32,000 bases of DNA from contig NC_000854.2 in assembly GCF_000011125.1 (NCBI RefSeq), forward strand, positions 540,001-572,000, in the 5' to 3' direction. The notes under the pieces are model-generated. The model saw only the letters and a program-made list of their open reading frames with translations. It was not told the DNA's origin and made no database searches. A program made the translations under genes and the position numbers. This DNA is from Aeropyrum pernix K1 (GTDB taxonomy: Archaea > Thermoproteota > Thermoprotei_A > Sulfolobales > Acidilobaceae). Below are positions 2,685-30,452 of this stretch, piece after piece (the first letter of the stretch is position 1; each line of letters starts with the position of its first letter).

Positions 2685-2794
2685 GCGCATCATACAGGAG
2701 CCCCCTCCTACAATCACATAAACAACCAGCTACCCACTCGGTTTCTCAACCGGACATTCAATCTGCTATACGGTTGTTATACGCCTCTGGCTCC

Positions 2795-4132
2795 ATGGAA
2801 GCGTATAGCAAGAATAGTACCGCCGCTCCAAGCAGTAGTCACGCCGAGGGGGAGAGCACGGCCGATGTCCTGGGCTATGAGGGGGTAGAGGTGCTCCCCG
2901 AGCCTAAGGACGTGCCGCAAGAGGCTAGACGCCAGCTTCTCAACCTGTTGGCCGAGAGGGGGAAAGTAAAGCCCTCGACTCTCGGTGTGAGCCGCGCATA
3001 CTTCTACCAGATGCGGAGGGGGCTACGCCCCATATCCGACTCTATCCTGGAGAGGCTTCTGGAGCTAGCTACTGACGACGACCTGGCCGGAATCCCCTTC
3101 TTCGCTCCCTACGTAGACTATCAGCGGGTGAAGGGTTACGATGTGGATAGGCTCGTTAGGCTGGTAGCCGAGTGGGCGAGGGCTAACCCTGCTAGCGCTA
3201 AGGTGTTCTTGGATAGCCTTTCAGCGGAGCTGGAGCGCCTGGGGCTCGTTGGGAAGGCTATCAAGGTGTCAGAACGGCATGTTAGGGAGTTTGAGGGCTA
3301 CCTCGAGGCGAGGGTTAGGAGCGGGGACATGGATCCCGGGACGGCGGGAGATAGGCTTAGGTACCTCAGGATGGCCCTCGAGGAGCTGGGCTACGTCCTG
3401 ACCAAGCAGGCTTTAAGGGGTTTAATAAGGAGGTATCAGGCCTCCCAGCCCGGCGTCGCAGATCACATATACAAGTCACTCAAGCTCTTCGTAAAGGAGG
3501 TGGTCCAGGACAGGGAACTCCTGGAGGCCATACCCTACCCGAGGGTTAGGTGGGGCAGCCCGGAGGCGCCTCAATGGAGTGATATATGCAGGGTCGTAGA
3601 AGCTCTCCCACACGCTGGTGCCCCTAGGGCCCTACTCCTGCTATTGGCATCCACAGGGCTGAGGGTCGAAACAGCCTACTCTCTACCGCTAGACTCGCTA
3701 AAACTCTCTGAGAGGCTGGTCTGGGTCTGGAGCCTTAAGAGGAGTAAGAGGACCTACTTCTCCTTCATAACCGAGAGGGTTAAAGGCGAGCTGGAGGTGT
3801 ATCTGGAAGCCAGGAGGAGGCACCTAGAGATCCTGGGTAGGGGCTCGGGCAAACTGTTCCCCTACAAGCCCCGGAGGCTCAGGGAGGCTATCTACGAGGC
3901 TATGGATAGGGAGCTGGGCCGGAGGTTCCAGCTGAAGCTCATTAGAAAGCGGGTGGCGGAGCACCTGAGCCACCACCTCTCAACCCTGGAGCTGAACGTG
4001 ATAATGGGCCACGCCCCGAGGGAGGTCGTGGAGAAGCACTACCTCCTCAGAGACCAGATCGAGGACCTCCGCAGAAAATACGACAAGGCTATGGCTAAGG
4101 TGCCGTGTCTAGGCGGAGGTGAGGCGGGATGA
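2795..4132 (+). CDS. tyrosine recombinase / integrase with N-terminal HTH
   Basis: The C-terminal catalytic domain shows ASTGLRVETAY (Arg), KLIRKRVAEHLSHH and IMGHAPREVVEKHYL (His and the Tyr nucleophile, tac at 4040-4042). An N-terminal HTH-like segment reads LGVSRAYFYQMRRGL. The track start is TTG 2774; the in-frame ATG at 2795 is preferred. Confidence 0.85.
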   Translation: MEAYSKNSTAAPSSSHAEGESTADVLGYEGVEVLPEPKDVPQEARRQLLNLLAERGKVKPSTLGVSRAYFYQMRRGLRPISDSILERLLELATDDDLAGIPFFAPYVDYQRVKGYDVDRLVRLVAEWARANPASAKVFLDSLSAELERLGLVGKAIKVSERHVREFEGYLEARVRSGDMDPGTAGDRLRYLRMALEELGYVLTKQALRGLIRRYQASQPGVADHIYKSLKLFVKEVVQDRELLEAIPYPRVRWGSPEAPQWSDICRVVEALPHAGAPRALLLLLASTGLRVETAYSLPLDSLKLSERLVWVWSLKRSKRTYFSFITERVKGELEVYLEARRRHLEILGRGSGKLFPYKPRRLREAIYEAMDRELGRRFQLKLIRKRVAEHLSHHLSTLELNVIMGHAPREVVEKHYLLRDQIEDLRRKYDKAMAKVPCLGGGEAG

Positions 4133-4908: not shown

Positions 4909-5889
4909 ATGGCCGTGCCCCCCGCCTCCCGGGCCTGCCGAGGTGGCGGGGGGCGGGGCTGGGGGTTAGAGATTGTTCTGGCCGATCTTAGGCGGGGCTT
5001 CTCTAACCTCCTCGAGTGGGAGCTCCTCAGTATAGTCGAGCTGAAGAGGCGGGGCCTAGGCCTCTCGGAGATAGCCAAGGCGGTTTACGGGACCAGCAGG
5101 AAGAGGTACAGGGTCTTCCGTATTCTGAGGCGTCTCCAGCGCATGGGTGTTCTCGACTGCCTACTCGAGGGCTCATGTTGCGCCCTGGGTGGGGAAGGCG
5201 ACGGCGGCCATGTTGCGCCTGCCGAAGATGCGCAACATGAAGGCGACGACGGGAGCGGGGAGGCGACATCGGAAGCAACATGGGAGGGGCTGCCTGGGAG
5301 GCTGGGGAGGACTCAGAAGCTTGTCATAGCGGCTCTGGCTATCCAGCTGGAGGCCACGCCCAGCATGATAGCTGCCTACGTCAACCATGCATACGGGAAA
5401 CGGGTTTCCCGGAACGCTGTGTGGCACGCCCTCAAGAGGCTGTCAGCCCGGGGTGTCGTTGAGAGGCTACCCCGGGGCTACTACAGGCTCCGCAGGCTCT
5501 CCAGCGGCATCCTGGTGGAGAACCTCAGGGTGAGGGGTCGCATGGTATGGAGCACGAGAGAGGAGGGTAGGCCAGCCACGCTGGAGGAGGCGTTAATAAC
5601 GGCGGCACTCAGAGACAGGACGTGGCCCGTGGAGCAGGCGGAACTCCTCTCACACGGCCCCCGCAAGCTGCTGGAGAAGGCAAGGCTGCTCGAAAGGCTG
5701 GGCTGGAGAATGACGGTTATGTATATAGACAGGAAGAACGGCGCCCCCAGGCTGAAGCTGGAACACAGGCTCTGGAACACACCCATACCGGCAAGGCCGG
5801 AGGAGCTATACTCATGGGTAAACCTATACAGGGAAGCCTCATCACTGGCAAGAGACCTCGCCGAACACATACTAGCGCGCACACGCTAG
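4909..5889 (+). CDS. DNA-binding protein with two (w)HTH-like domains (candidate regulator or replication/partition factor)
   Basis: LLSIVELKRRGLGLSEIAKAVYGTSRKRYRVFRILRRLQRMGVL is a LuxR/sigma-r4-like HTH. MIAAYVNHAYGKRVSRNAVWHALKRLSARGVVERLPRGYYRL is winged-helix-like. Palindrome copy 2 lies in its 5' part. Confidence 0.6.
   Translation: MAVPPASRACRGGGGRGWGLEIVLADLRRGFSNLLEWELLSIVELKRRGLGLSEIAKAVYGTSRKRYRVFRILRRLQRMGVLDCLLEGSCCALGGEGDGGHVAPAEDAQHEGDDGSGEATSEATWEGLPGRLGRTQKLVIAALAIQLEATPSMIAAYVNHAYGKRVSRNAVWHALKRLSARGVVERLPRGYYRLRRLSSGILVENLRVRGRMVWSTREEGRPATLEEALITAALRDRTWPVEQAELLSHGPRKLLEKARLLERLGWRMTVMYIDRKNGAPRLKLEHRLWNTPIPARPEELYSWVNLYREASSLARDLAEHILARTR
4965..5007. repeat. bipartite palindrome copy 2 (intragenic)
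   Basis: Left arm GGGTTAGAGAT, right arm TTCTCTAACCT; offset 35 nt. Inside the 5' part of ORF 4909..5889, read as G-L-E...F-S-N. Confidence 0.8.
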
Positions 5890-5947
5890 CCCATGTTGCG
5901 GGCGGGGGGTTCGTGGGCGCGCAATATTGGGGTTTGTGGTTGGGTTT

Positions 5948-6655
5948 TTATTGGCAGATTCTTTTTATGTTGTTTATGCGTTCGTCTAGGGTGAGGGCTG
6001 GTGCTCCTAATGTGGTTTCGTGGCTTGTGTTGATGCCTTGTTTCTTTAGGTGGTTGAGTATTTCTGCGAATATTAGTGCTGGTTTGCAGCCGGTTGTTTT
6101 TGCTGCTAGTGTGTCTGCTTCTAGTTCTTGTTCTTTTATTGTTGTTGCTTCGTATTTTGTGGTTTGTGCTAAGAGGGCGAGTGAGATTATTATTAGTAGT
6201 AGGTTGGCGGTGGGTTTTTCACTTTTCTTTGTTCTGTTTAGGTTTTTGATTGAGTCTTTGAGGCTGTCGAAGCTTATTTTGGTTAGTTGTCTTGTCGTGT
6301 AGGATGCGATGGCGTGGTTCTTCACTATATGGGCTACTTCGTGTGCTACGATGAATTTTATAACCTCTTCTGGCAGCTTATCCGCTAGTTCTCTACGGAT
6401 AAACACTATTCCGTAGCCGCCTAGTCCTATGGAGAATGCGAGCTCGTAGGCTGGTAGCTTTTCGTTCTCTTTAAACAGCGCCACTATTATTATGCCTCTT
6501 GAGCCCATTCTGGAGGCTAGTTCTTGTGCTAATGCTGTGTATTTGATGTCTAAGTTAGATAAGGCGAGGAGCAGAAGATCTATTAGCTCATCCTCCACAC
6601 TTCTTTCGCTCAACTGCCTATTCCGACCTAAGTTTTTGGGGTGCTTCATGTTCAA
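5948..6655 (-). CDS. M48-family-like Zn metallopeptidase
   Basis: The HExxH motif in FIVAHEVAHIVKNH maps to about 6329-6343. A downstream QELEADTLAAKTTG matches the ExxAD third-ligand motif of the M48 (HtpX/Ste24-like) family. The gene is AT-rich. A TATA (6689-6699, minus strand) abuts palindrome copy 3. Confidence 0.65.
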   Translation of the reverse strand: MNMKHPKNLGRNRQLSERSVEDELIDLLLLALSNLDIKYTALAQELASRMGSRGIIIVALFKENEKLPAYELAFSIGLGGYGIVFIRRELADKLPEEVIKFIVAHEVAHIVKNHAIASYTTRQLTKISFDSLKDSIKNLNRTKKSEKPTANLLLIIISLALLAQTTKYEATTIKEQELEADTLAAKTTGCKPALIFAEILNHLKKQGINTSHETTLGAPALTLDERINNIKRICQ

Positions 6656-6699
6656 GATCCACTCAGCTTTTAAAGATAGTGCGTTATACTATATAATAT

Positions 6700-6742
6700 G
6701 TTAGAGAAGGTATTACCGCTATGCTGTGAAGTTTTCTCTAAC
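6700..6742. repeat. bipartite palindrome copy 3
   Basis: Left arm ATGTTAGAGAA, right arm TTCTCTAACAC; offset 35 nt. Abuts the TATA at 6689-6699. Confidence 0.9.
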
Positions 6743-6840
6743 ACGTGCTGGTGGTGTGAGCCCGATGCGAGCCTCGATCATAAATACCGTAGCCATGTAA
6801 CATGACATCTATACTGCTTAGACTTACTCCAAATGAACCC
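6743..6840 (+). repeat. conserved noncoding module, copy A (paralogous to 9437-9535)
   Basis: Shared blocks in the same order and similar spacing after a palindrome copy: GAGCCCG, TAGCC(A/T)TGTAA, TATACTGCTTA (6810-6820 vs 9509-9519) and GACTT. Confidence 0.6.
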
Positions 6841-7021
6841 ACCCCACCTAGAGTTACGGCTTCCGGCCACGATGTAGGGAAGGGAGTTTTCCCTTGTTTC
6901 CAGCCTAGCACCCTCTGGGGAGGTTCCGATTTTATTATTCTAGGGTTTTTCTGGGTGCCTCCTATAGTATTAGGAGTCATGGTGGCAAAGGCTGCATGTT
7001 AGAGTTTCCGATTACGTCGCG

Positions 7022-8005
7022 TTGCAGAGGCCTGGGTTGAGATATGGACTGTTTCTCATTATATCCGGTGGGGCGGCCTTGGTTCTGAGCTTCAATATTG
7101 AAGGACGGTTGTCCGAAGTCCTCATGGCTATTAGTGCGACCCTAACGGCCTCGGGTGCGATAATAGCCGCCCAGTCCTTGGCTCAACTGGAGATTCAAGA
7201 AGCCTTAGAGAGCAGAAGGGAGCATAAGAAAAGACTTGATAAGTTGGCAGAGCGTATCATCAGAGGTGACGCTGGTAGGATTGTATCTAACGCTATAGGG
7301 TTAGAGAAAACAAAATTTGACATACTCTATTCAGAACCCTGCGATACACTTGAAGCATTGAAAGACGAGGAGCCTTATCTCCTGAAGGATCTAGACACTC
7401 ATCTTGAAGGTAAGCCTATAAGTAAACTGCTAGATGTTTGCAGGAAGCATAAAAAGTCGGTAAAATCTTTAGATGAAGAATTGGATGAGATAGCTTCCAG
7501 AGTAGTTGATTTTGTGGTGCAGGAACTTGGACAGCAGTATAAAATTCTGGAAACGTATGACAATTCGTTTAAAGAATTCGTTAAAACTAAAGTATTAGCA
7601 CCCACTATAAGAACCATACATAATAATGAGTCTCAATGGACGCTTGAGAATATAGTAAAAGAAGCACGTAGAATACAGGATGAAATAAAGATGGAAGTGA
7701 AATTGAAGGATACGTACAAAGGGGGTATGTCAGGCATAGATGTATACATGTACGCGTTCAAGCTAGTATATGTTAAAGCTCATTTGCCGACAGAGGGTCC
7801 AGCCGTTCGCAATAACGTTCTGAGAGTGTTTAAAGAGGTATTTGAACAAAAGCTGGCCAGCTATGCCAAAGACCTAGTAGATAAGGTGGAGGAGACTTCA
7901 TCATTAACGCGCAGTGCAGAAGAAATCAAGAAGCTAACGGTAAATCGTTTATACGAACTGAGGGAAAAAACGTATCTTCCAAACCTCTGCCAGTACGTAA
8001 AGTAA
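7022..8005 (+). CDS. hypothetical membrane protein (2 N-terminal TM helices plus a charged helical domain)
   Basis: Hydrophobic segments LFLIISGGAALVLSF and VLMAISATLTASGAIIAAQSL are followed by a Lys/Glu-rich region. AT-rich codon usage differs from the backbone. The start is uncertain (TTG 7022 or TTG 7037). Confidence 0.55.
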   Translation: MQRPGLRYGLFLIISGGAALVLSFNIEGRLSEVLMAISATLTASGAIIAAQSLAQLEIQEALESRREHKKRLDKLAERIIRGDAGRIVSNAIGLEKTKFDILYSEPCDTLEALKDEEPYLLKDLDTHLEGKPISKLLDVCRKHKKSVKSLDEELDEIASRVVDFVVQELGQQYKILETYDNSFKEFVKTKVLAPTIRTIHNNESQWTLENIVKEARRIQDEIKMEVKLKDTYKGGMSGIDVYMYAFKLVYVKAHLPTEGPAVRNNVLRVFKEVFEQKLASYAKDLVDKVEETSSLTRSAEEIKKLTVNRLYELREKTYLPNLCQYVK

Positions 8006-8225
8006 AATAGCGTTACTTCAAAGGGAGCCTTGCACTGCCTACCTATGTAAAACTTTGGTCGTCTTGGGCTCCTTGATTCATTATTTGAACATTATATATC
8101 ACACCCGTTAATCATCGTGTTATTAAAGCTTTGCCAGCTATGGTTGGAGAAGTCAGCTCATAACATACTCAACCATCTCTTTAAACCCTGGATGGGCCCT
8201 GGAGGTTCTGTCTGCTTGCCTGGCT

Positions 8226-8417
8226 GTGGTGGGGCTCGGGGCCCAGGTTAGGGTTTTGAGGGGGTTGTTGGAGCTGTATCATGCTAGGTTGCCCGGCGAT
8301 GTTAAACGCGGTATAGTGGATATGTTGGATGAAGCCGAGGCTTTGAAGGCCGTCTTGAAGCGGGAGCTGGATCCGGTTTTGCGTAGGCTCGGAGACAAGG
8401 TGTTAGAGAACGGTTAG
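8226..8417 (+). CDS. hypothetical small helical protein (63 aa)
   Basis: GC-rich islet inside the AT-rich island. The last codons (GTG TTA GAG AAC GGT TAG) run into palindrome copy 4. Coding status is uncertain. Confidence 0.3.
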   Translation: MVGLGAQVRVLRGLLELYHARLPGDVKRGIVDMLDEAEALKAVLKRELDPVLRRLGDKVLENG

Positions 8418-8445
8418 CCTGGGTTGCCTGTCCTGTTCTCTAACA
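8403..8445. repeat. bipartite palindrome copy 4
   Basis: Left arm GTGTTAGAGAA, right arm TTCTCTAACAC (perfect 11-mers); offset 35 nt. Confidence 0.9.
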
Positions 8446-8473
8446 CCCTGGAGTCTAGGGTCTAGGCATGGTG

Positions 8474-8517
8474 TTAGAGGGAGGCTTTTTGCTCCAAGCT
8501 GGATGCTTTCTATTACT
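8474..8517. repeat. bipartite palindrome copy 5 (degenerate)
   Basis: Left arm GTGTTAGAGGG; right arm TCTATTAC matches 6 of 8 positions at offset 36. Lies 29 nt after copy 4. Confidence 0.5.
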
Positions 8518-8558
8518 CATGTATGATGCATAGTATTAGATGTTTGATAAAAGAATGG

Positions 8559-9350
8559 CTAGCGTTTTTGATGGCATAGATTTAGGGCTTCCTCTGCTAT
8601 TTGTACTAAATAAGTTTTTTGAACAAATCCTACTAATTCATTTATAGTCTTACTTGTTTCTTCCGTTATAGGGTTGTCGAGTTGCTTTAGTAGGATTCTT
8701 GTTCTATCTAGTATTTCTGTTGATCCCGTAGTTTCTGCTGCTCTTTTAATGATCTCTAGAGCTTCTTTTGGTCTTGGCATTGAAAATATATCGTGTCCTT
8801 GGCTGGAGGAGGTTAGTGGCGTAATGGCTAGGGAGCGGCTTTTAATGGCCTCTGGTAGGCCCCAGCAGATGATTATATATCCTTTGAATGGATCACTATA
8901 ATTATGTTTCTTTGCTTCGGCAACAGCTTTAAGGAGCGTTAATAGCGAGGCTGCAATATCTGGCTTCATTGATTCTATTACTTGTTGTTGGGCTAATTCT
9001 CTTGTGTAATAAGCTTGATAGTATATTGCTCCTAGCACGAAGAGAGATATTATTACGCTAATTATAGTTAGCACGCCTGATGTTACATCCCATAAAGGGA
9101 TAAAGCCTTTAATATATAAAAGCCAACTTACTACAATGATGACCAAAGAGACTACAAACAAAATTACACTTACAAGCTTTGGCTTCAGATCCATCATCTC
9201 CCAGAGAATACTTAGACTATAGCAATACCATATTTTATTTTTATGGTTAGAGAAGCTTCTTATATGAGGATTGTAGTTGCCCTCTAACTCCGGATTTCTA
9301 TGCTCTCTTGTAAGGAGTTGTCTCTGCGTCTCGTGGCTCCTGTTAATCAT
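8559..9350 (-). CDS. hypothetical membrane protein (2 TM plus a soluble domain); a short form probably starts at 9197
   Basis: The TM segments LVSVILFVVSLVIIVVSWLL and VLTIISVIISLFVLGAIYY follow the internal MMDLKPK (ATG 9197). A TATA (9231-9244, minus strand) abutting palindrome copy 6 lies about 39 nt upstream of 9197. A second TATA (9381-9390) abutting copy 7 could serve the long form starting at 9350. Confidence 0.55.
   Translation of the reverse strand: MINRSHETQRQLLTREHRNPELEGNYNPHIRSFSNHKNKIWYCYSLSILWEMMDLKPKLVSVILFVVSLVIIVVSWLLYIKGFIPLWDVTSGVLTIISVIISLFVLGAIYYQAYYTRELAQQQVIESMKPDIAASLLTLLKAVAEAKKHNYSDPFKGYIIICWGLPEAIKSRSLAITPLTSSSQGHDIFSMPRPKEALEIIKRAAETTGSTEILDRTRILLKQLDNPITEETSKTINELVGFVQKTYLVQIAEEALNLCHQKR
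9246..9288. repeat. bipartite palindrome copy 6
   Basis: Left arm TGGTTAGAGAA, right arm CCTCTAAC (7 of 8); offset 35. Abuts the minus-strand TATA at 9231-9244. Confidence 0.75.
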
Positions 9351-9393
9351 GGTTGATGGACGTGGCGGTGTCGGGGTGGGTATATAATAAGGT

Positions 9394-9436
9394 GTTAGAG
9401 AATGTTAGGGCACTATGCTGAGGAACCTTCTCTAAC
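9394..9436. repeat. bipartite palindrome copy 7
   Basis: Perfect GTGTTAGAGAA / TTCTCTAACAC; offset 35. Abuts TATATAATAA at 9381-9390. Confidence 0.9.
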
Positions 9437-9535
9437 ACCTACTGTTGGCGCGAGCCCGTGTTGAGTCTTGATCTATCTATGAATGCTATAGCCTTGTAAT
9501 GCATGGTTTATACTGCTTATGACTTCCGCCTCTGA
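9437..9535 (+). repeat. conserved noncoding module, copy B (paralogous to 6743-6840)
   Basis: See copy A. Both modules are preceded by TATA plus a palindrome, and both end near AGTCATGGTG (6975-6984 and 9563-9572) leading into a GTTAGAG half-site or full site. Confidence 0.6.
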
Positions 9536-9571
9536 GTTTTAACTACTTAAAGCCCTAACTCCAGTCATGGT

Positions 9572-9614
9572 GTTAGAGAATGTTTTAGGCGGTTTTGAAC
9601 AGTCGTTCTCTAAC
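9572..9614. repeat. bipartite palindrome copy 8
   Basis: Perfect GTGTTAGAGAA / TTCTCTAACAC; offset 35. Followed by TTATTATA at 9619-9626. Confidence 0.9.
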
Positions 9615-9700
9615 ACCCTTATTATACGTTTCAGGTTGCTCCGTGCTGTTTCCAGTCTTCATCTAGTATGTTGCATGGCGCATATAGTATGTAGGGTGGG

Positions 9701-9979
9701 TTGGTGTCTGTGCATGTGGATAGGTTTGTAGCAGTAGTGGATTATATTATAGATATTGTTGCGGGTGTTTTGATGGCGTTCTTCATGGTGGTGTTTGGCT
9801 GGTTTCTGAAGGGAGCATATGAAGTGCATAGGGCTGGTGCTTGCGATGGGCTCTGCATGAATCTATTTGTTCTGAGCCTGATAGGGTTCATGCTTGCTAC
9901 CGCGCTTTCCCTCTTCTTTTCTAGGTCAATACTGAGGAAGCTAGGGGGTGCAAGTGATGGTCCTAGAGTATGTGCGTAG
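9701..9979 (+). CDS. hypothetical small membrane protein (92 aa)
   Basis: Two or three hydrophobic helices (IVAGVLMAFFMVVFGWFL, LFVLSLIGFMLATALSLFF). First gene of the long plus-strand block, downstream of palindrome copy 8 and a TATA. Confidence 0.5.
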   Translation: MVSVHVDRFVAVVDYIIDIVAGVLMAFFMVVFGWFLKGAYEVHRAGACDGLCMNLFVLSLIGFMLATALSLFFSRSILRKLGGASDGPRVCA

Positions 9980-10436
9980 GCTTGTTGGGGCTAGGGAGAA
10001 GCCTGATCCCCGTGAGCTTTTGGGTTTGGTGGAGGCGGTTGATGCTGGGCAGCAGCAGGGTGGTGCGCCCCCGTTCGACTTGTATACGTTGCTTGAGGAC
10101 GAGAAGGTTGGGCGCGAGCTGTGGCCCTATATTCTGGGGTTTGTGGCGAGGGATACGAAGCTCACCTACTTTACGGAGAGGGATGAGGAGTACCTGTTCT
10201 GGAAGATCGAGGCGATAGCGACTAAGATAGAGATGGCGCTGAACTCGCAGACCCCGCCGCCCGACCGGTTCCCCAGGGTTGAGGATTACGTGAAGGTTGT
10301 GGAGGCGCAGCGGCTGCTGGCGGACAACCTGAGGGTGCTGATGCTGGCGGCCGTGAGGCGCTCCACACTGGGCTTCGAGAGGAGGCTGCAGGCGATGCGC
10401 CACTTCGTCTTCTCCTACTCGGACAGGAGGTTCTAG
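9957..10436 (+). CDS. hypothetical protein
   Basis: Track ORF 9948..10436. ATG 9957 is preceded by the SD-like GGGGGTG. It overlaps the upstream gene's end, giving an operon-style arrangement. Confidence 0.5.
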   Translation: MVLEYVRRLVGAREKPDPRELLGLVEAVDAGQQQGGAPPFDLYTLLEDEKVGRELWPYILGFVARDTKLTYFTERDEEYLFWKIEAIATKIEMALNSQTPPPDRFPRVEDYVKVVEAQRLLADNLRVLMLAAVRRSTLGFERRLQAMRHFVFSYSDRRF

Positions 10437-10441
10437 GGGCC

Positions 10442-11401
10442 TTGATGGGCGCGCTCATGCTGCTGGGCATGGCCCTCGGGGGGCTGGCGGGCCTGGGGGC
10501 TGGCTACCTGCTCTACCCCTCGAGGCCCGACCTGGCCCTCCTGGCGGGGCTGGGCGCCGGTTCGGCCCTGGGCTGGGCTATGGGGTTCTTCTACTGGAGC
10601 TTCGGGGTTCCACCGGCGTTCAAGCAGGCTATGCGGGCTGCTAGAACCGGGTTCCTTATTGTGGCTGTGGGGGCGGACAAGAAGGCCCGCCTCCTCCCGG
10701 GGTTCAGCGACGGCTTCGTGGTCCGCCCGGCGCCTAGGCCCTACAGGGATAAGTACGCGTGGGCGGCGGACGGGGAGAGCAGCTACCCTATCCACGGGGG
10801 CCGGGGGACCCAGCTCCTCGTAACATTCATGGGCTACCCCTTCCCCCTGGAGGCCGGGAAGGCGGCGGCCGTCTCGAAGTTCAGGGAGAGGGGGTTCAGG
10901 AGCATTGAGGACCTGAAGACGGCGGTGGAGCTGCCTACTGTGGAGGAGATTGAGGCCCGGATGCGGGAGCTGGAGGCGGCTAGGGCCTCTATAGAGAAGA
11001 TGGACGAGGGGGAGGTTAGGCGGCTCTACGGCGAGGATAAGCGCCAGCTTCTCGCTGAGGTTGATAGGGAGCTGGAGCGGCTGGAGAGGGTTAGAGAACT
11101 CGTTAAGGAGTACGGCGGCGGCAGTTCTCTAACCGTTAACGTGGACGGCGCCACGGTGAGGGCCTCGGACCTCATCTCCTACCTCGTCTGGCGCCACCAT
11201 CCGAGCGAGATCGACAGGATAGTGAAGGCTGAGACCAACGCGGTGCTCTCCAGGCTCTCCGCTGTGGACTGGCTGAGGCAGCTCCTGCCGGTCATCATAG
11301 TGACGGGTATGTTCGTGCTGGGTATCATAGTGGTGGTGTACATGCTGAAGGGTGGCGGGCCCCCGGCGCCGGTCGAGTCCATAGCTATAGGGGGTGGGTA
11401 G
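10442..11401 (+). CDS. hypothetical membrane protein (N- and C-terminal TM segments, central coiled region)
   Basis: N-terminal Gly/Ala/Leu-rich TM helices, a central Glu/Arg-rich helix, and a C-terminal TM (LLPVIIVTGMFVLGIIVVVYML). It contains palindrome copy 9 in frame. Confidence 0.55.
   Translation: MMGALMLLGMALGGLAGLGAGYLLYPSRPDLALLAGLGAGSALGWAMGFFYWSFGVPPAFKQAMRAARTGFLIVAVGADKKARLLPGFSDGFVVRPAPRPYRDKYAWAADGESSYPIHGGRGTQLLVTFMGYPFPLEAGKAAAVSKFRERGFRSIEDLKTAVELPTVEEIEARMRELEAARASIEKMDEGEVRRLYGEDKRQLLAEVDRELERLERVRELVKEYGGGSSLTVNVDGATVRASDLISYLVWRHHPSEIDRIVKAETNAVLSRLSAVDWLRQLLPVIIVTGMFVLGIIVVVYMLKGGGPPAPVESIAIGGG
11090..11133. repeat. bipartite palindrome copy 9 (intragenic, in frame)
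   Basis: Left arm GGGTTAGAGAA, right arm TTCTCTAACCG; offset 36. Read as V-R-E...S-L-T in ORF 10442..11401. Confidence 0.85.
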
Positions 11402-14230: not shown

Positions 14231-15496
14231 ATGCTGAGGCGTCGTGTTCTGATGGACGGCGGGGGCTCGGCTGGCTCCGCCCCCTCCTCCCCCGGCTCTT
14301 CTAGGCCCCCGGACTACAGCCTCTACGAGTCTCAACCCCGACCGGCACCCGCGTCCTGGAGCCCCCTGGGTGTGCTGGCCTCTGCTCTCGACGCCCCCTA
14401 CAGTTTTGTCCAGGAGAGGGGGTGGGGGGTTGTTGAGAGGCTTAGGAGGAGGGCGTTGAGGGAGAAGGCTGAGGGGGACTATGCCGAGGGGTTTCTCTGG
14501 GCTCTGGGCGCCTCTGCCGCTAGCTTCGGCGTGGGCGTGGCGGCCGGTGTTACGGGGCTCTTCAGCCCTAGGGCCTGGAGGGAGGCTTTCCACGCCTTCA
14601 TGCACCCGGGGGAGACTGTGAGGGCCGTGGCGTCCGACCCTCTGTCGTGGCCGTATCTTGCGGGGTCTGTGGTCGGGCCTGCTAAGCTGGGGAGGGCTGT
14701 TGGGCGGAGGCTGGGGAGGGTTAGAGAACCCGATTTAGCCTCTACCAGCGAGGGTTCTCTAACACTTGTGGCCGCCAAGGGAGAAAGGCTCAGATGGGCG
14801 GCCAGGCTCGAGGCAAGAGGCCCCACAGTAGGGGTTAAGGGTGTGAAGCCCAGGCCCCCGCCAGACAGGCTCGTCACCCTCGAGACCCCGAGGGGTAGGG
14901 TTGAGCTGCTCGAGTCTAGGCGGGGCTCCACCGTTAGGAGGGTCTATAGGGCTGAGTACAGGGATGTGGGGAAGAAGCTGCTGGGGGTTGAGGAGTGGAG
15001 TGTCGAGGGCTGGCTGAGGCCTAGGTACCGGTACCGGGGGCTGCTTGTCGACCCGGAGACGCCCGGGGCGGCCGTCCTCCTGGAGGCCCGGAGGCCGTTG
15101 TTGAGGGGTGTGGATCTGCCGCCTCCCAGACTGTGGGTCGAGCCTAGGCTTGCCGCTCCCGCCGGGGCTGTAGGCCTTATACTAGGCCTCGGCGCCGCCG
15201 GGACCGGTGCTCGGGGCGGTTTGGAGGGTGGTGCCGCTGGGCGGCCTGCTGAGGCGGGTGCCCGGGGGCTTGTGTCCGGGTCCTCTCTGGCCGGGGGTGA
15301 GGCCGCGGCCTCTACCCTGGCGGGGGCCTCGGCCGCGTCTTCCCCGGCGGAGCCCTCTGCAGCCTCAGCCGGGCGCGGGGGTCCTGAGGCTCCCCCGCTC
15401 CTGGGGTCTGGTTCCCGGGGGAGGCGTGGCAGGAGGGGGAAGCTGGCTTACTCGGAGATCCTGTATCCTGGCGGCGTGCTTCTGGAGCTTCTCTAG
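14231..15496 (+). CDS. hypothetical protein with a Gly/Ala/Ser-rich C-terminal region
   Basis: 421-aa ORF containing palindrome copy 11 in frame. The C-terminal third is low complexity (GAAGTGARGG...ASAASSPAEPSAASAG). Confidence 0.5.
   Translation: MLRRRVLMDGGGSAGSAPSSPGSSRPPDYSLYESQPRPAPASWSPLGVLASALDAPYSFVQERGWGVVERLRRRALREKAEGDYAEGFLWALGASAASFGVGVAAGVTGLFSPRAWREAFHAFMHPGETVRAVASDPLSWPYLAGSVVGPAKLGRAVGRRLGRVREPDLASTSEGSLTLVAAKGERLRWAARLEARGPTVGVKGVKPRPPPDRLVTLETPRGRVELLESRRGSTVRRVYRAEYRDVGKKLLGVEEWSVEGWLRPRYRYRGLLVDPETPGAAVLLEARRPLLRGVDLPPPRLWVEPRLAAPAGAVGLILGLGAAGTGARGGLEGGAAGRPAEAGARGLVSGSSLAGGEAAASTLAGASAASSPAEPSAASAGRGGPEAPPLLGSGSRGRRGRRGKLAYSEILYPGGVLLELL
14720..14763. repeat. bipartite palindrome copy 11 (intragenic, in frame)
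   Basis: Left arm GGGTTAGAGAA, right arm TTCTCTAACAC; offset 36. Read as V-R-E...S-L-T in ORF 14231..15496. Confidence 0.85.
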
Positions 15497-19974: not shown

Positions 19975-21267
19975 TTGGCCCGGGTGCCAGTTTTGAGGCT
20001 GTCAGCCGTACTTGCGGGTGGCCTCCTGCTCCTCTTGCTGGTGGCCCCTATCCCTGGGTGGACCCCTGCGGCTGCTCAGGCGGGCGTCTTCCTGGAGATA
20101 GTGCTGCCGGACGGGAGTGGCTACAGGTTCGGCCCCCTGATACTCGAGAGGGGCGATCTAGTGGCCCCCAGCTTCTACAGGCTGGTGCTCGACGGGTCGG
20201 GCTACGTCGAGTTCGACCTCGCGCCCGAGGCCGGTACTGTGGCGGCCCTGGTGAGGCCCTACAAGACGCCGGACTGGAACGCTATAGCCAGCAACGACGA
20301 GGCCCTCTCCTGGAGGCTCTACGTCTCCCAGGCCTCAGACGCCTACGAGTTCATGAGGAGGGACAGCGCCCTAAACGCCTACGTGGCTGGCGACGGGGCC
20401 GCCCGGGACGGCGTGCTCGTGTGGGTCCTAGCCTACACCTACAGCGACAGGCTGGAGATACACGCTACCGGCAGCGGGAGCGCCTCGTGGACCGGGAGCC
20501 CCGCGGGCCCCGCTGCCAAGGTACTGATAGGCTCTAACATGTTCAACGGGAGCGAGGTCCCGGCCCAGCGGTGGATCGGGGAGATATGGGCTGTTGTGGT
20601 GCATTCGCAGCCCGCCGTCGACCCTAGGGGCTACGAGGTCCCCGCTTCGGGGCTGGAGCTCCTATTCGACCCGGGCTGGTACCTCGGCGGGGGCCTGTTC
20701 GCCGGGCTCTCGGGGTCCGGGTTCGTGTACGGGCGCCTGGTAGGTGATGCTGTGCTCGAGGCGTCTGCGCCTAGGATCTGGGTGGTTAGAGACGCCTACA
20801 CAGACCAATACCTGCACGTTTCTCTAACACCCTACGGCTCGAGGCTGAGGGTGCTCGACGCCTCCGGCGAAGTCCTGGCAGAGTATAGTGTGATATCAGA
20901 CAACAGGGTGGGGGACCTGGTGCTCGACTACCAGGTACCCTGGCCCCCGGCGCCGGGATCCGGCGGTGGTGATGGGGGGCTGGGGGCTCTGGACCTGCTG
21001 GCCGTCCCCGTTGTGCTGCTCGCCCTTGCAGCCCCGGGGGTTGCCCTGGCATCCGGTCCGGTTTGGGGGTTCACCTTCGCCGTCTTCGCCGGGGTCGCTG
21101 GCTGGGTCTCACTGTCGCGGGCCGGTGGCTTGGGGGTTGAGGGGAGCGTGTGGCAGGGGCTGGCGCTGCTCGCCCTGGTCAGCATGGTTCTGGCGGTGGT
21201 CCTATCTGCGGTCAAGCTCCTCGCCTGGAGGGGCGGCCTCAGGGAGCCCAGGGGTTTGGACCTGTGA
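19975..21267 (+). CDS. secreted protein with C-terminal TM helices (possible LamG/concanavalin-like fold)
   Basis: Signal peptide (LLLLLLVAPIPGWTPAAAQA), a beta-rich central part, and three C-terminal TM helices. It contains palindrome copy 12 in frame. Confidence 0.6.
   Translation: MARVPVLRLSAVLAGGLLLLLLVAPIPGWTPAAAQAGVFLEIVLPDGSGYRFGPLILERGDLVAPSFYRLVLDGSGYVEFDLAPEAGTVAALVRPYKTPDWNAIASNDEALSWRLYVSQASDAYEFMRRDSALNAYVAGDGAARDGVLVWVLAYTYSDRLEIHATGSGSASWTGSPAGPAAKVLIGSNMFNGSEVPAQRWIGEIWAVVVHSQPAVDPRGYEVPASGLELLFDPGWYLGGGLFAGLSGSGFVYGRLVGDAVLEASAPRIWVVRDAYTDQYLHVSLTPYGSRLRVLDASGEVLAEYSVISDNRVGDLVLDYQVPWPPAPGSGGGDGGLGALDLLAVPVVLLALAAPGVALASGPVWGFTFAVFAGVAGWVSLSRAGGLGVEGSVWQGLALLALVSMVLAVVLSAVKLLAWRGGLREPRGLDL
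20785..20828. repeat. bipartite palindrome copy 12 (intragenic, in frame)
   Basis: Left arm TGGTTAGAGAC, right arm TTCTCTAACAC; offset 36. Read as V-R-D...S-L-T in ORF 19975..21267. Confidence 0.85.
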
Positions 21268-28408: not shown

Positions 28409-28450
28409 GTTAGAGAATAAGGCTAAATTCCTTACAGCATTTTCTCTAAC
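28409..28450. repeat. bipartite palindrome copy 14
   Basis: Perfect GTGTTAGAGAA / TTCTCTAACAC; offset 34. Followed by a C/A-only tract. Confidence 0.9.
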
Positions 28451-30408: not shown

Positions 30409-30452
30409 GTTAGAGAATAATCAGCGACAGATTAGGTCGATATTTCTCTAAC
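30409..30452. repeat. bipartite palindrome copy 15
   Basis: Perfect GTGTTAGAGAA / TTCTCTAACAC; offset 36. Abuts the minus-strand TTAAAT at 30401-30406, upstream of gene 29321..30376. Confidence 0.9.

Follow-up and report, generated by a model that had tools for sequence, protein, structure and literature searches.

The stretch of DNA analyzed here, referred to below as the window, comprises 32,000 nucleotides (nt) of the Aeropyrum pernix K1 chromosome (NC_000854.2, positions 540,001 to 572,000) and contains the provirus APSV1, with 100% identity over the 6 kb tested; a window position equals the position in the APSV1 record plus 4128. Our analysis concerns the AT-rich island at about 5950-9950, which holds the open reading frames (ORFs) orf4 to orf8 among repeated copies of a wide-spaced palindrome, between the conserved genes orf3 and orf9. 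APSV1 itself is a published, spindle-shaped provirus, so the object is not new, and orf4 to orf8 are already annotated as ORFs of this virus (orf4-235, orf5-322, orf6-63, orf7-263 and orf8-91), orf4 under the RefSeq name 'M48 family metalloprotease'. The annotation records list ORFs only; they contain neither the compositional mosaic nor the set of palindromes, and they mention neither the orf6 family nor any comparison with relatives from metagenomes.

Organization and base composition of the region

The variable region is anchored on its left by orf3-326 (4909-5889, plus strand), whose product has two winged-helix-like regions. Directly after the orf3 stop a conserved non-coding element (5890-5950), followed by a run of T, forms the left junction, and the first cargo cassette is orf4-235 (5948-6655, minus strand), predicted to encode a soluble zinc metallopeptidase of the M48/M56 type. 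Next comes copy A of a putative promoter module (6680-6830), made up of a TATA-like box for orf4 on the minus strand (6688-6698), a palindrome (6700-6742) and a conserved flank of about 90 nt. The second cargo cassette, orf5 (7022-8005, plus strand), encodes a protein of 322-327 amino acids (aa) with a two-helix membrane anchor and a long helical domain. A degenerate palindrome (about 8143-8190; GTTGGAGAA ... ATCTCTTTAAAC) stands upstream of orf6-63 (8226-8417, plus strand), which occupies a GC-richer islet and belongs to a small conserved family of helical proteins. Between the convergent genes orf6 and orf7, an exact palindrome (8402-8444) overlaps the 3' end of orf6 and is followed by a degenerate copy (8474-8517; GTGTTAGAGGG ... 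CTTTCTATTAC). The third cargo cassette, orf7 (minus strand), extends from 8559 to 9197 (212 aa) or, as annotated, to 9350 (263 aa), and specifies two transmembrane (TM) helices and a soluble domain. A palindrome with two mismatches in one arm (9246-9288) lies upstream of its short start, and copy B of the promoter module (9374-9530), again with a TATA-like box, a palindrome (9394-9436) and the conserved flank, lies 44 nt upstream of the long start at 9350. A further exact palindrome (9572-9614) abuts a TTATTATA box in a promoter position for orf8 and the gene run orf9-orf12. The last gene of the island, orf8-91 (9704-9979, plus strand; 9701-9979 in the ORF list), encodes a small, APSV1-specific two-TM protein and overlaps the start of orf9-159 (9957-10436, plus strand), with which the conserved core genes begin and which anchors the variable region on the right. 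The left part of the window is host DNA with a tRNA-Val gene (2607-2684), the sole match (at 2607-2681) of an Rfam scan that returned nothing inside the island, and an integrase fragment (2774-4132).

Windowed GC content is 0.58-0.63 at 5000-5750, drops to 0.38-0.50 over about 5950-9950 and is back at 0.60-0.69 beyond 10000, bearing out the flip from GC-rich to AT-rich DNA reported in a preliminary description of this region. The low GC resides in the coding sequence: GC content at third codon positions (GC3) is 0.45 in orf4, 0.42 in orf5, 0.34 in orf7 and 0.47 in orf8, against 0.70-0.89 in the core genes orf9-orf34. About 32% of the island is non-coding. The GC-rich islet with its 63-aa ORF, which the preliminary description had pointed out, is present (orf6 GC3 = 0.69) and is the site of a conserved family gene rather than an oddity. 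We rejected a secondary element integrated inside the provirus, as neither direct repeats flanking the island at about 5900 and 9950 nor a recombinase gene (integrase or transposase) within it were found.

Metagenomic relatives point to a hypervariable compartment

A palindrome scan of species-representative genomes gave mostly single chance matches. The contigs with multiple copies came from metagenome-assembled genomes of Acidilobaceae/Desulfurococcales, with six exact copies on L032 (eight when mismatches are counted), four on L063 and two each on L041, L083 and L125, and by tblastn these contigs carry APSV1 genes. The order int-orf2-orf3, with palindromes at the same two places, recurs on L083 and L105, L088 carries orf44-47 and orf52, and a metagenome scan with orf9 yielded two short contigs only. 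The best comparator is L143, the contig of the orf3 homologue P0012 (GC 0.587), which was found through an orf3 homology search. Its gene order is int, two small genes, orf3, a variable stretch, orf9, orf10, orf11, orf12, orf14, orf16, orf17 and orf18, with aa identities to APSV1 of 51% (orf3), 84% (orf9), 61% (orf10), 81% (orf11), 64% (orf12) and 71% (orf18). Its palindromes match those of APSV1 in position within the 5' end of orf3 and ahead of orf9 and orf14, and the variable stretch holds an additional copy; the copy upstream of orf9 is common to L143 (5236-5279) and L144 (81-123), and that upstream of orf14 to APSV1, L143 and L125.

The interval between orf3 and orf9 of L143 (3025-5380) is likewise of low GC (0.33-0.52 versus 0.58-0.68 elsewhere on the contig), and no counterpart of orf4, orf5, orf7 or orf8 was found in it. 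It holds instead a gene for a 238-aa protein, on the opposite strand, and an orf6-family gene, together with genes for a 45-aa ribbon-helix-helix (RHH) protein and a 272-aa TM-plus-helical protein. The sequence or gene content next to orf3 or orf9 differs in L143 (with both flanks visible), L144/L145, L146, L063 and L032. The accessory nature and foreign composition first attributed to this DNA hold up, and its content varies between relatives. On L146, orf3 is followed by genes for 233-aa and 84-aa proteins; on L145 a membrane-anchored gene on the opposite strand directly precedes orf9, with an upstream GC of 0.375; L063 encodes proteins of 211, 113, 236 and 174 aa, mostly membrane-anchored; and L032 encodes small membrane proteins, AbrB- and RHH-like proteins, a retropepsin-like aspartyl protease and three orf6 paralogues.

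Both junctions of the compartment are well defined. On the left, similarity stops about 60 nt past the orf3 stop, where the opposite-strand cargo gene ends. This sharp edge has no palindrome, as the preliminary description had noted; it has instead the element at 5890-5950, about 60 nt that are some 85% identical by blastn to L143 3022-3071 and L140 10956-11013 while the flanking DNA diverges. The element exceeds the neighboring genes in conservation, cannot be coding because of a 1-nt indel, and showed no covariation in the comparison with L143 and L140; a terminator and a further binding site are possible roles. On the right, similarity begins again at the start codon of orf9, which is conserved in L143 (84% aa identity), L144 (81%) and L145 (70%), and a palindrome with a TATA-like box precedes it in APSV1, L143 and L144. 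Neither outer junction of APSV1 falls within a palindrome. One pair of relatives gives a view of homology breakpoints: L032 and L052 share a 1.7-kb block of 96% identity whose right end lies in a palindrome spacer and whose left end lies in the conserved core of an orf6 paralogue. The suggestion that breakpoints would coincide with palindromes is weakly supported by this block, both ends of which fall in a palindrome/orf6 unit, and is not supported by the outer junctions of APSV1.

We also observed a provirus remnant on L125 (WANR01000040.1, 72001-80000), in which a truncated int' is followed by orf11-orf12-orf14-orf17-orf18, with two tandem palindromes before orf14; the deletion spans the int C-terminus to orf10.

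The cargo proteins

The product of orf4 matches Pfam PF01435 (Peptidase_M48) over residues 73-189, scoring 43.4 bits where the cut-off is 20.3 (E=4.4e-11), and the zinc-binding motif H105-E106-x-x-H109 (HEVAH) and the third-ligand motif Q176-E-L-E-A-D181 (QELEAD) are invariant across all six members of the orf4 family, in agreement with the M48-like zinc peptidase proposed in the preliminary description. Its AlphaFold2 (AF2) model has a pLDDT of 84.8; the best matches of the model to PDB structures by Foldseek were BlaR1, Ste24/ZMPSTE24 and minigluzincins, all weak (E >= 2e-3, TM-score 0.4-0.5), and a comparison with viral structures returned weak, generic zincins only. PDB sequence searches with orf4, orf5 and orf7 gave no match. 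Hydropathy analysis showed no TM segment above threshold in orf4, at odds with a membrane-embedded HtpX/Ste24-type enzyme, and neither a substrate nor a sensor domain was evident. The sequence features mark the orf4 product as a soluble M48/M56-type gluzincin, predicted to be a cytoplasmic protease with a complete active site. It shares with HtpX, Ste24/ZMPSTE24, BlaR1/MecR1, selecase and projannalysin the HExxH motif and the downstream Glu in an ExxAD context, as well as the Pfam match, and its best fold matches, weak as they are, fall in this group, but it differs from them in its lack of TM helices, its length of 235 aa, its low TM-scores and its tiny, six-sequence clade. Homologues among 5.8 billion clustered proteins number five, three of them clear (40-45% identity) and two distant. 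The clear homologues are all encoded on contigs of 33-47% GC, beside unrelated genes in variable or defense-type surroundings; one adjoins a DUF499/DUF1156/SNF2 cluster and another a protein with a faint Mrr_cat match. In tblastn searches of the homologue loci with the island proteins M48 alone matched, with no orf5 or orf7 neighbors and no common partner.

Two N-terminal hydrophobic helices were predicted by hydropathy in each of orf5, orf7 and orf8, which supports the earlier assignment of orf5 and orf7 as 2-TM proteins. By the positive-inside rule the soluble domains of the membrane-anchored cargo proteins are probably cytoplasmic and tethered at the inner membrane face. Searches of PADLOC, NCBIfam and PHROGs placed none of orf5, orf6, orf7 and orf8 in a significant family. 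The AF2 model of orf5 (pLDDT 66.7 overall, 80-93 in the soluble part) is a long helical domain with a beta-hairpin, and no significant sequence or fold match was obtained; the Foldseek matches were generic helical bundles only, including ClyA-type toxins (probability <= 0.23, TM-score <= 0.35), which we did not interpret. In 1.8 billion representatives orf5 has a single homologue, P0009, with 37% identity. Despite this divergence a 24-aa juxtamembrane helix (AQSLAQLEIQEALESRREHK) is identical in the two proteins and looks like a strongly constrained motif. At the nucleotide level, the 80 nt that encode it (window 7149-7228) are 86% identical to L138 10149-10228. Upstream of orf5 and of its L138 homologue, no conserved element was found beyond a degenerate palindrome. 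P0009 is encoded in a low-GC islet of a chromosome with 55-59% GC, where its neighbors include a degenerate palindrome and fragments that resemble orf49 and orf52 of APSV1. The M48 gene and orf7 are absent from its locus, where it is paired with a 290-aa gene that is homologous, by eye, to the gene preceding orf9 in L145; taken at face value, this neighbor is a direct example of cargo genes re-dealt among elements.

The sole database match of orf7 is itself, in its 212-aa form, and it is hence an orphan. Databases disagree on its start, and each of the two starts (9197 and 9350) lies about 45-50 nt downstream of its own palindrome and A/T-rich box, the distance being 49 nt for the short start. 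Two isoforms, of 263 and 212 aa, expressed from tandem predicted promoters are possible. No matches were found for orf8, nor is it present in L143, L144 or L145, where the promoter region runs directly into orf9; it is an APSV1-only insert between this promoter and orf9. A comparison of the proteins composed of TM segments and a helical domain (orf5, orf7, the 211- and 236-aa proteins of L063, the 200-aa protein of L032 and the 272-aa protein of L143) did not show them to be one family, all pairwise scores being below 10 bits.

The orf6 family

In profile hidden Markov model searches the orf6 family comprised three members on L032, one on L143, two on L052 and the APSV1 gene (E 1e-7 to 1e-34), and the family profile had no Pfam or PDB relatives. 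Gene and palindrome are intertwined: one arm of the palindrome at 8402-8444 encodes the C-terminal VLEN of orf6, a layout repeated in the L032 paralogues. Two of the latter have a palindrome overlapping each end, with arms that encode an FSN close to the N-terminus or the C-terminal LEN, and the third has palindromes just inside each end of the ORF. On L143 (3821-4316) and L032 (2391-2857), an orf6-family gene and an RHH gene of 45-58 aa diverge from one shared palindrome, an arrangement reminiscent of a genetic switch. In APSV1, family similarity reaches upstream to 8127 and the position of the degenerate palindrome at 8143-8190 is occupied by a canonical copy in the relatives; the locus has no RHH partner, and the conserved N-terminal part has no canonical start. 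The APSV1 copy looks partly decayed. The orf6 family is native to this virus group.

A virus-wide palindrome and its candidate binders

The palindrome has the form GTTAGAGAA-N24-26-TTCTCTAAC (also written GTGTTAGAGAA-N24-26-TTCTCTAACAC), with arms of 9-11 bp and a spacer of 24-26 bp. The window contains 10 perfect copies, against none expected from 100 shuffles. The exact copies of the island are those at 6700-6742, 8402-8444, 9394-9436 and 9572-9614. Of the copies listed for the cassette edges in the preliminary description, those at 6700, 8402 (one base off in that listing), 8474 and 9246 were recovered; a supposed half-site at 6998-7005 is a 7-base match (GTTAGAG) only, failed a search allowing one mismatch and is indistinguishable from chance, and the copies at 9394 and 9572, as well as the degenerate one at about 8143-8190, had been overlooked. 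Nor is the motif a property of the island. Fourteen good copies extend over 26 kb of APSV1 (record positions 317-26324) and none occurs in the last 11.7 kb of the virus or in the host flank, while 7 of the approximately 16 copies (14 good and 2 degenerate) fall within a 3-kb stretch in the island and three are packed into the 506-nt gap at 9198-9703.

About 10 of the 16 copies lie 30-100 nt upstream of start codons, namely those of orf2, orf4, orf6, both orf7 starts, orf8, orf14, orf32, orf34 and orf36. The arm is frequently followed, after 3-6 nt, by an A/T-rich, TATA-like box, as in ...TTCTCTAACAC-CTTATTATA and -ATCCTTTATAAA; a strict TATA-like 8-mer was present 2-19 nt from the arm at 17 of 41 copies in APSV1 and its relatives versus 25% of random windows (p=0.016), an enrichment that is real but partial. 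Within the island, as judged from the sequence, a palindrome and TATA-like box precede the starts of orf4, orf7 (both) and orf8 by 44-90 nt, and a degenerate copy precedes orf6. The start of orf4 is 45-51 nt from the box and arm of module A, and the two modules (6680-6830 and 9374-9530) are duplicates of about 140 nt with 71-78% identity. The exception is orf5, which starts 280 nt from the nearest good palindrome. Two further copies (8402 and 8474) are found where orf6 and orf7 converge at their 3' ends, and four lie within GC-rich core genes. The latter are at window positions 4965-5007 (orf3), 11090-11133 (orf10), 14720-14763 (orf16) and 20785-20828 (orf23). With copies in these two settings, the motif must have some role beyond that of a promoter-proximal operator.

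The copy inside orf10 is instructive. The codons GTT AGA GAA of APSV1 correspond to GTC AGG GAG in L143, both encoding V-R-E, and the site is missing from the orthologous codons of L143 and L145, which indicates that sites can arise in place under selection. Such creation in situ supports a binding function and opposes the reading of the palindromes as insertion scars. We also considered a hairpin or cruciform role and rejected it, as the stems fold only modestly at 37 °C and the arms are conserved in sequence and not just in complementarity. A. pernix grows near 90-95 °C. Modest hairpins, sequence-conserved arms and a hot host together lead us to favor the palindrome as a predicted double-stranded protein-binding site. 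In IMG/VR the palindrome gave single chance matches only and scans with orf10 and the orf3 family gave no match; a sigma-70/terminator scan, which is not meaningful for an archaeon, showed no enrichment, and a literature search did not find the motif together with Aeropyrum.

The candidate binders are the double-winged-helix protein orf3 and the orf6-family protein. For orf3 we obtained weak winged helix-turn-helix matches, all below Pfam cut-offs (TrmB, GntR and AbiEi_4), and a PHROG transcriptional regulator match (E=3e-5); homologues at 30-58% identity are P0011-P0013 and those on L143, L083, L105, L063 and L032. In every orf3-like gene listed a palindrome lies about 55-100 nt inside the coding start (APSV1 4965-5007, L143 2116-2159, L083 2726-2768, L105 547-589, L063 5913-5956 and L032 7622-7665), which is the pattern expected of an autoregulated palindrome-binding protein.

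Discussion

Our findings support the interpretation of the interval at 5950-9950 as a hypervariable accessory compartment of APSV1, in which independent imported cassettes were placed under the palindrome of the virus and do not form one system, a reading to which we assign a probability of roughly 0.7. The compartment is a mosaic of separately acquired low-GC genes (orf4, orf5, orf7 and orf8) interleaved with native regulatory DNA and orf6. According to the mechanism we propose, most transcription units of the island would start beside a palindrome copy, usually with a TATA-like box directly next to one arm, and a palindrome-binding regulator would turn imported and core genes on or off together. 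Promoter modules appear to have been duplicated within the region (6680-6830 and 9374-9530), where they would drive the two leftward genes orf4 and orf7. Gene turnover might proceed via recombination in repeated palindrome/orf6 units and conserved flanks; for exchange at the palindrome/orf6 units, the single direct, weak support is the L032/L052 pair. Because the cargo promoters share the motif of core-gene promoters, we infer expression with the viral program and not autonomous lysogenic conversion. Each cargo product would most likely act on its own, at the host membrane or proteome, in the course of this program, and roles in host takeover, competitor exclusion or counter-defense are conjecture.

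Several observations weigh against this interpretation. A clear TATA-like neighbor is found at only about 40% of palindrome copies, the copies at 8402 and 8474 between convergent 3' ends and the four inside core genes are not where promoter elements would be placed, and the promoter, operator and regulator assignments are all predictions from position. Regional mutation or selection, rather than import, could account for the low GC that the compartment shows in all GC-rich relatives. The L032/L052 breakpoints are those of one pair of metagenome contigs, one with 1.5x coverage, in which repeats can cause mis-joins. Protein functions are putative throughout, and orf5 and orf7 have no informative matches.

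The preliminary description had offered the M48 peptidase and the two 2-TM proteins as a candidate accessory system, and the idea that they constitute one prophage-borne system for defense, abortive infection or superinfection exclusion has some appeal, given a protease beside small membrane proteins in compositionally foreign DNA, the M48 homologues elsewhere near defense-type genes (DUF499/DUF1156/SNF2 and the faint Mrr_cat match) and weak Lit and RmrA matches around the HExxH of orf4. We nevertheless consider it very unlikely: orf4, orf5 and orf7 do not co-occur in any homologue locus examined, they occupy separate predicted transcription units of mixed orientation with a native gene between, and PADLOC-DB gave no significant match, with RmrA at 13.7 bits only for orf4 and nothing for orf5-orf8. 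The solitary occurrence of orf4 and orf5 homologues and the orphan status of orf7 argue against a three-gene system, and of the searches suggested earlier, those with profiles identified orf4 as M48 by Pfam and were uninformative for orf5 and orf7, as was a structure search for orf5. The same description left undecided whether cassettes are exchanged at the palindromes or regulated by them; regulation is the better supported half (about 10 of 16 copies upstream of starts, many of them beside a TATA-like box). A stronger form of the exchange idea, in which the palindromes are site-specific recombination sites of an integron-like or otherwise recombinase-driven kind and the island was assembled by insertion there, draws on the copies at most cassette edges, including the non-promoter position at the 3'-3' junction (8402/8474), on the orf6-family genes flanked by copies on both sides and on the L032/L052 breakpoint within a palindrome spacer. 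The arm GTTAGAG/CTCTAAC also superficially resembles integron core sites. Yet the arm order is opposite to attC, four copies lie in conserved core genes and that of orf10 was made in situ by codon choice, the APSV1 outer junctions are outside palindromes, the genes are of mixed orientation with their own TATA-like boxes, the sole recombinase is an SSV-type integrase with att at tRNA-Val and the split-int junction, and most of the second low-GC block of the virus (orf35-orf44) is without copies, all of which makes this explanation improbable.

Seven of about 16 copies within 3 kb, about 32% non-coding DNA, three copies in a 506-nt gap, the switch-like divergence of orf6 and RHH genes from a shared palindrome in L143 and L032, and an adjacent orf3 that carries its own palindrome could also mean that the region is mainly a viral regulatory or lysogeny-switch hub (operator cluster, orf6 and orf3) in which the AT-rich genes are incidental passengers. 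This we regard as doubtful, since in APSV1 the RHH partner is missing here, the palindrome 5' of orf6 is degenerate and a canonical start for the conserved N-terminal part of orf6 is lacking; it is also compatible with the accessory-compartment interpretation, to which it adds without excluding it. That an AT-rich, repeat-dense segment with a DnaA-like gene (orf12) nearby might be the viral replication origin is scarcely credible, as the cumulative GC skew shows a monotonic rise across the region and nowhere reverses, the low GC is that of coding sequence, and the same inverted repeats are spread over 26 kb.

Among known systems, the accessory compartment most resembles the accessory ('moron') or hypervariable regions of temperate viruses, with genes of foreign composition between conserved syntenic blocks, content that varies in each relative and one gene per predicted transcription unit. 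The bounding genes are syntenic (orf3 on one side and, in L143, orf9-orf18 on the other, with partial views in L083, L105, L144 and L145), the content varies and the composition is atypical. Classic morons, equipped with autonomous promoters and terminators, are expressed while the prophage is repressed, whereas the predicted cargo promoters of APSV1 carry the core-gene palindrome, which implies co-regulation with the viral program. A regulatory parallel is the fusellovirus SSV1, in which repeated operator sites are bound by the RHH repressor F55. In APSV1, too, a short virus-specific motif recurs at several predicted promoters of a spindle-shaped temperate archaeal virus; unlike the F55 sites, it is a wide-spaced inverted repeat, copies of which also lie within genes and where genes converge, and for which there are only candidate binders. 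Integron cassette arrays are similar in having short imperfect inverted repeats between exchangeable genes, but APSV1 has neither an integron integrase nor attI, its genes are of mixed orientation with their own predicted promoters, its repeats also occur in core genes, and it is archaeal and viral.

This work locates where APSV1-like viruses keep their fast-evolving accessory genes, which are exchangeable individually and not as a system, and adds about ten metagenomic relatives to a previously lone virus, so that comparative work becomes possible. No cargo protein can be claimed as a new defense system yet, and the cargo, a rare soluble M48/M56-like protease and membrane-tethered helical proteins, offers candidates for virus-host or virus-virus conflict in Aeropyrum. 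The more interesting object is the predicted palindrome regulon, which reaches well beyond the coordinates of the island and names a testable regulatory element with two candidate binders (orf3 and orf6) in a hyperthermophilic archaeal virus; no description of APSV1-type gene regulation was found in the literature searched. A tentative extension, which we hold to be rather unlikely, is that the 43-bp palindrome and its TATA box, often with a bracketed orf6 gene, form a portable module that serves as a plug-in socket, being at once the operator by which a viral regulator (orf3 or orf6) brings any captured gene into the viral program and, as a dispersed repeat, the recombination junction for cassettes swapped among viruses of AT-rich and GC-rich hosts. 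If true, this would make the socket the archaeal-virus counterpart of a cassette platform; no description of one was found in the literature searched. A Hi-C study of A. pernix K1 reported 19 chromosomal loops that emanate from the APSV1 provirus (PMC10769869), and the dispersed palindromes, including the core-gene sites, together with their predicted binder could serve as anchors of these loops.

Two other loci deserve mention. On L052 (JALVZQ010000003.1, 2250-4400), a variable-region remnant of about 2 kb is embedded in a 401-kb chromosomal contig beside an apparent tRNA gene (seen by ORF translation only), and holds orf6-like genes, a winged helix-turn-helix gene, an aspartyl protease gene and palindromes. 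In APSV1 itself, the second low-GC block, orf35-orf44 (28890-38190 in window numbering; L001 24762-34063), encodes a DNA methyltransferase and an adenine glycosylase; its only palindrome is at window position 30409, near its left end, and another lies just outside that end, at 28409.

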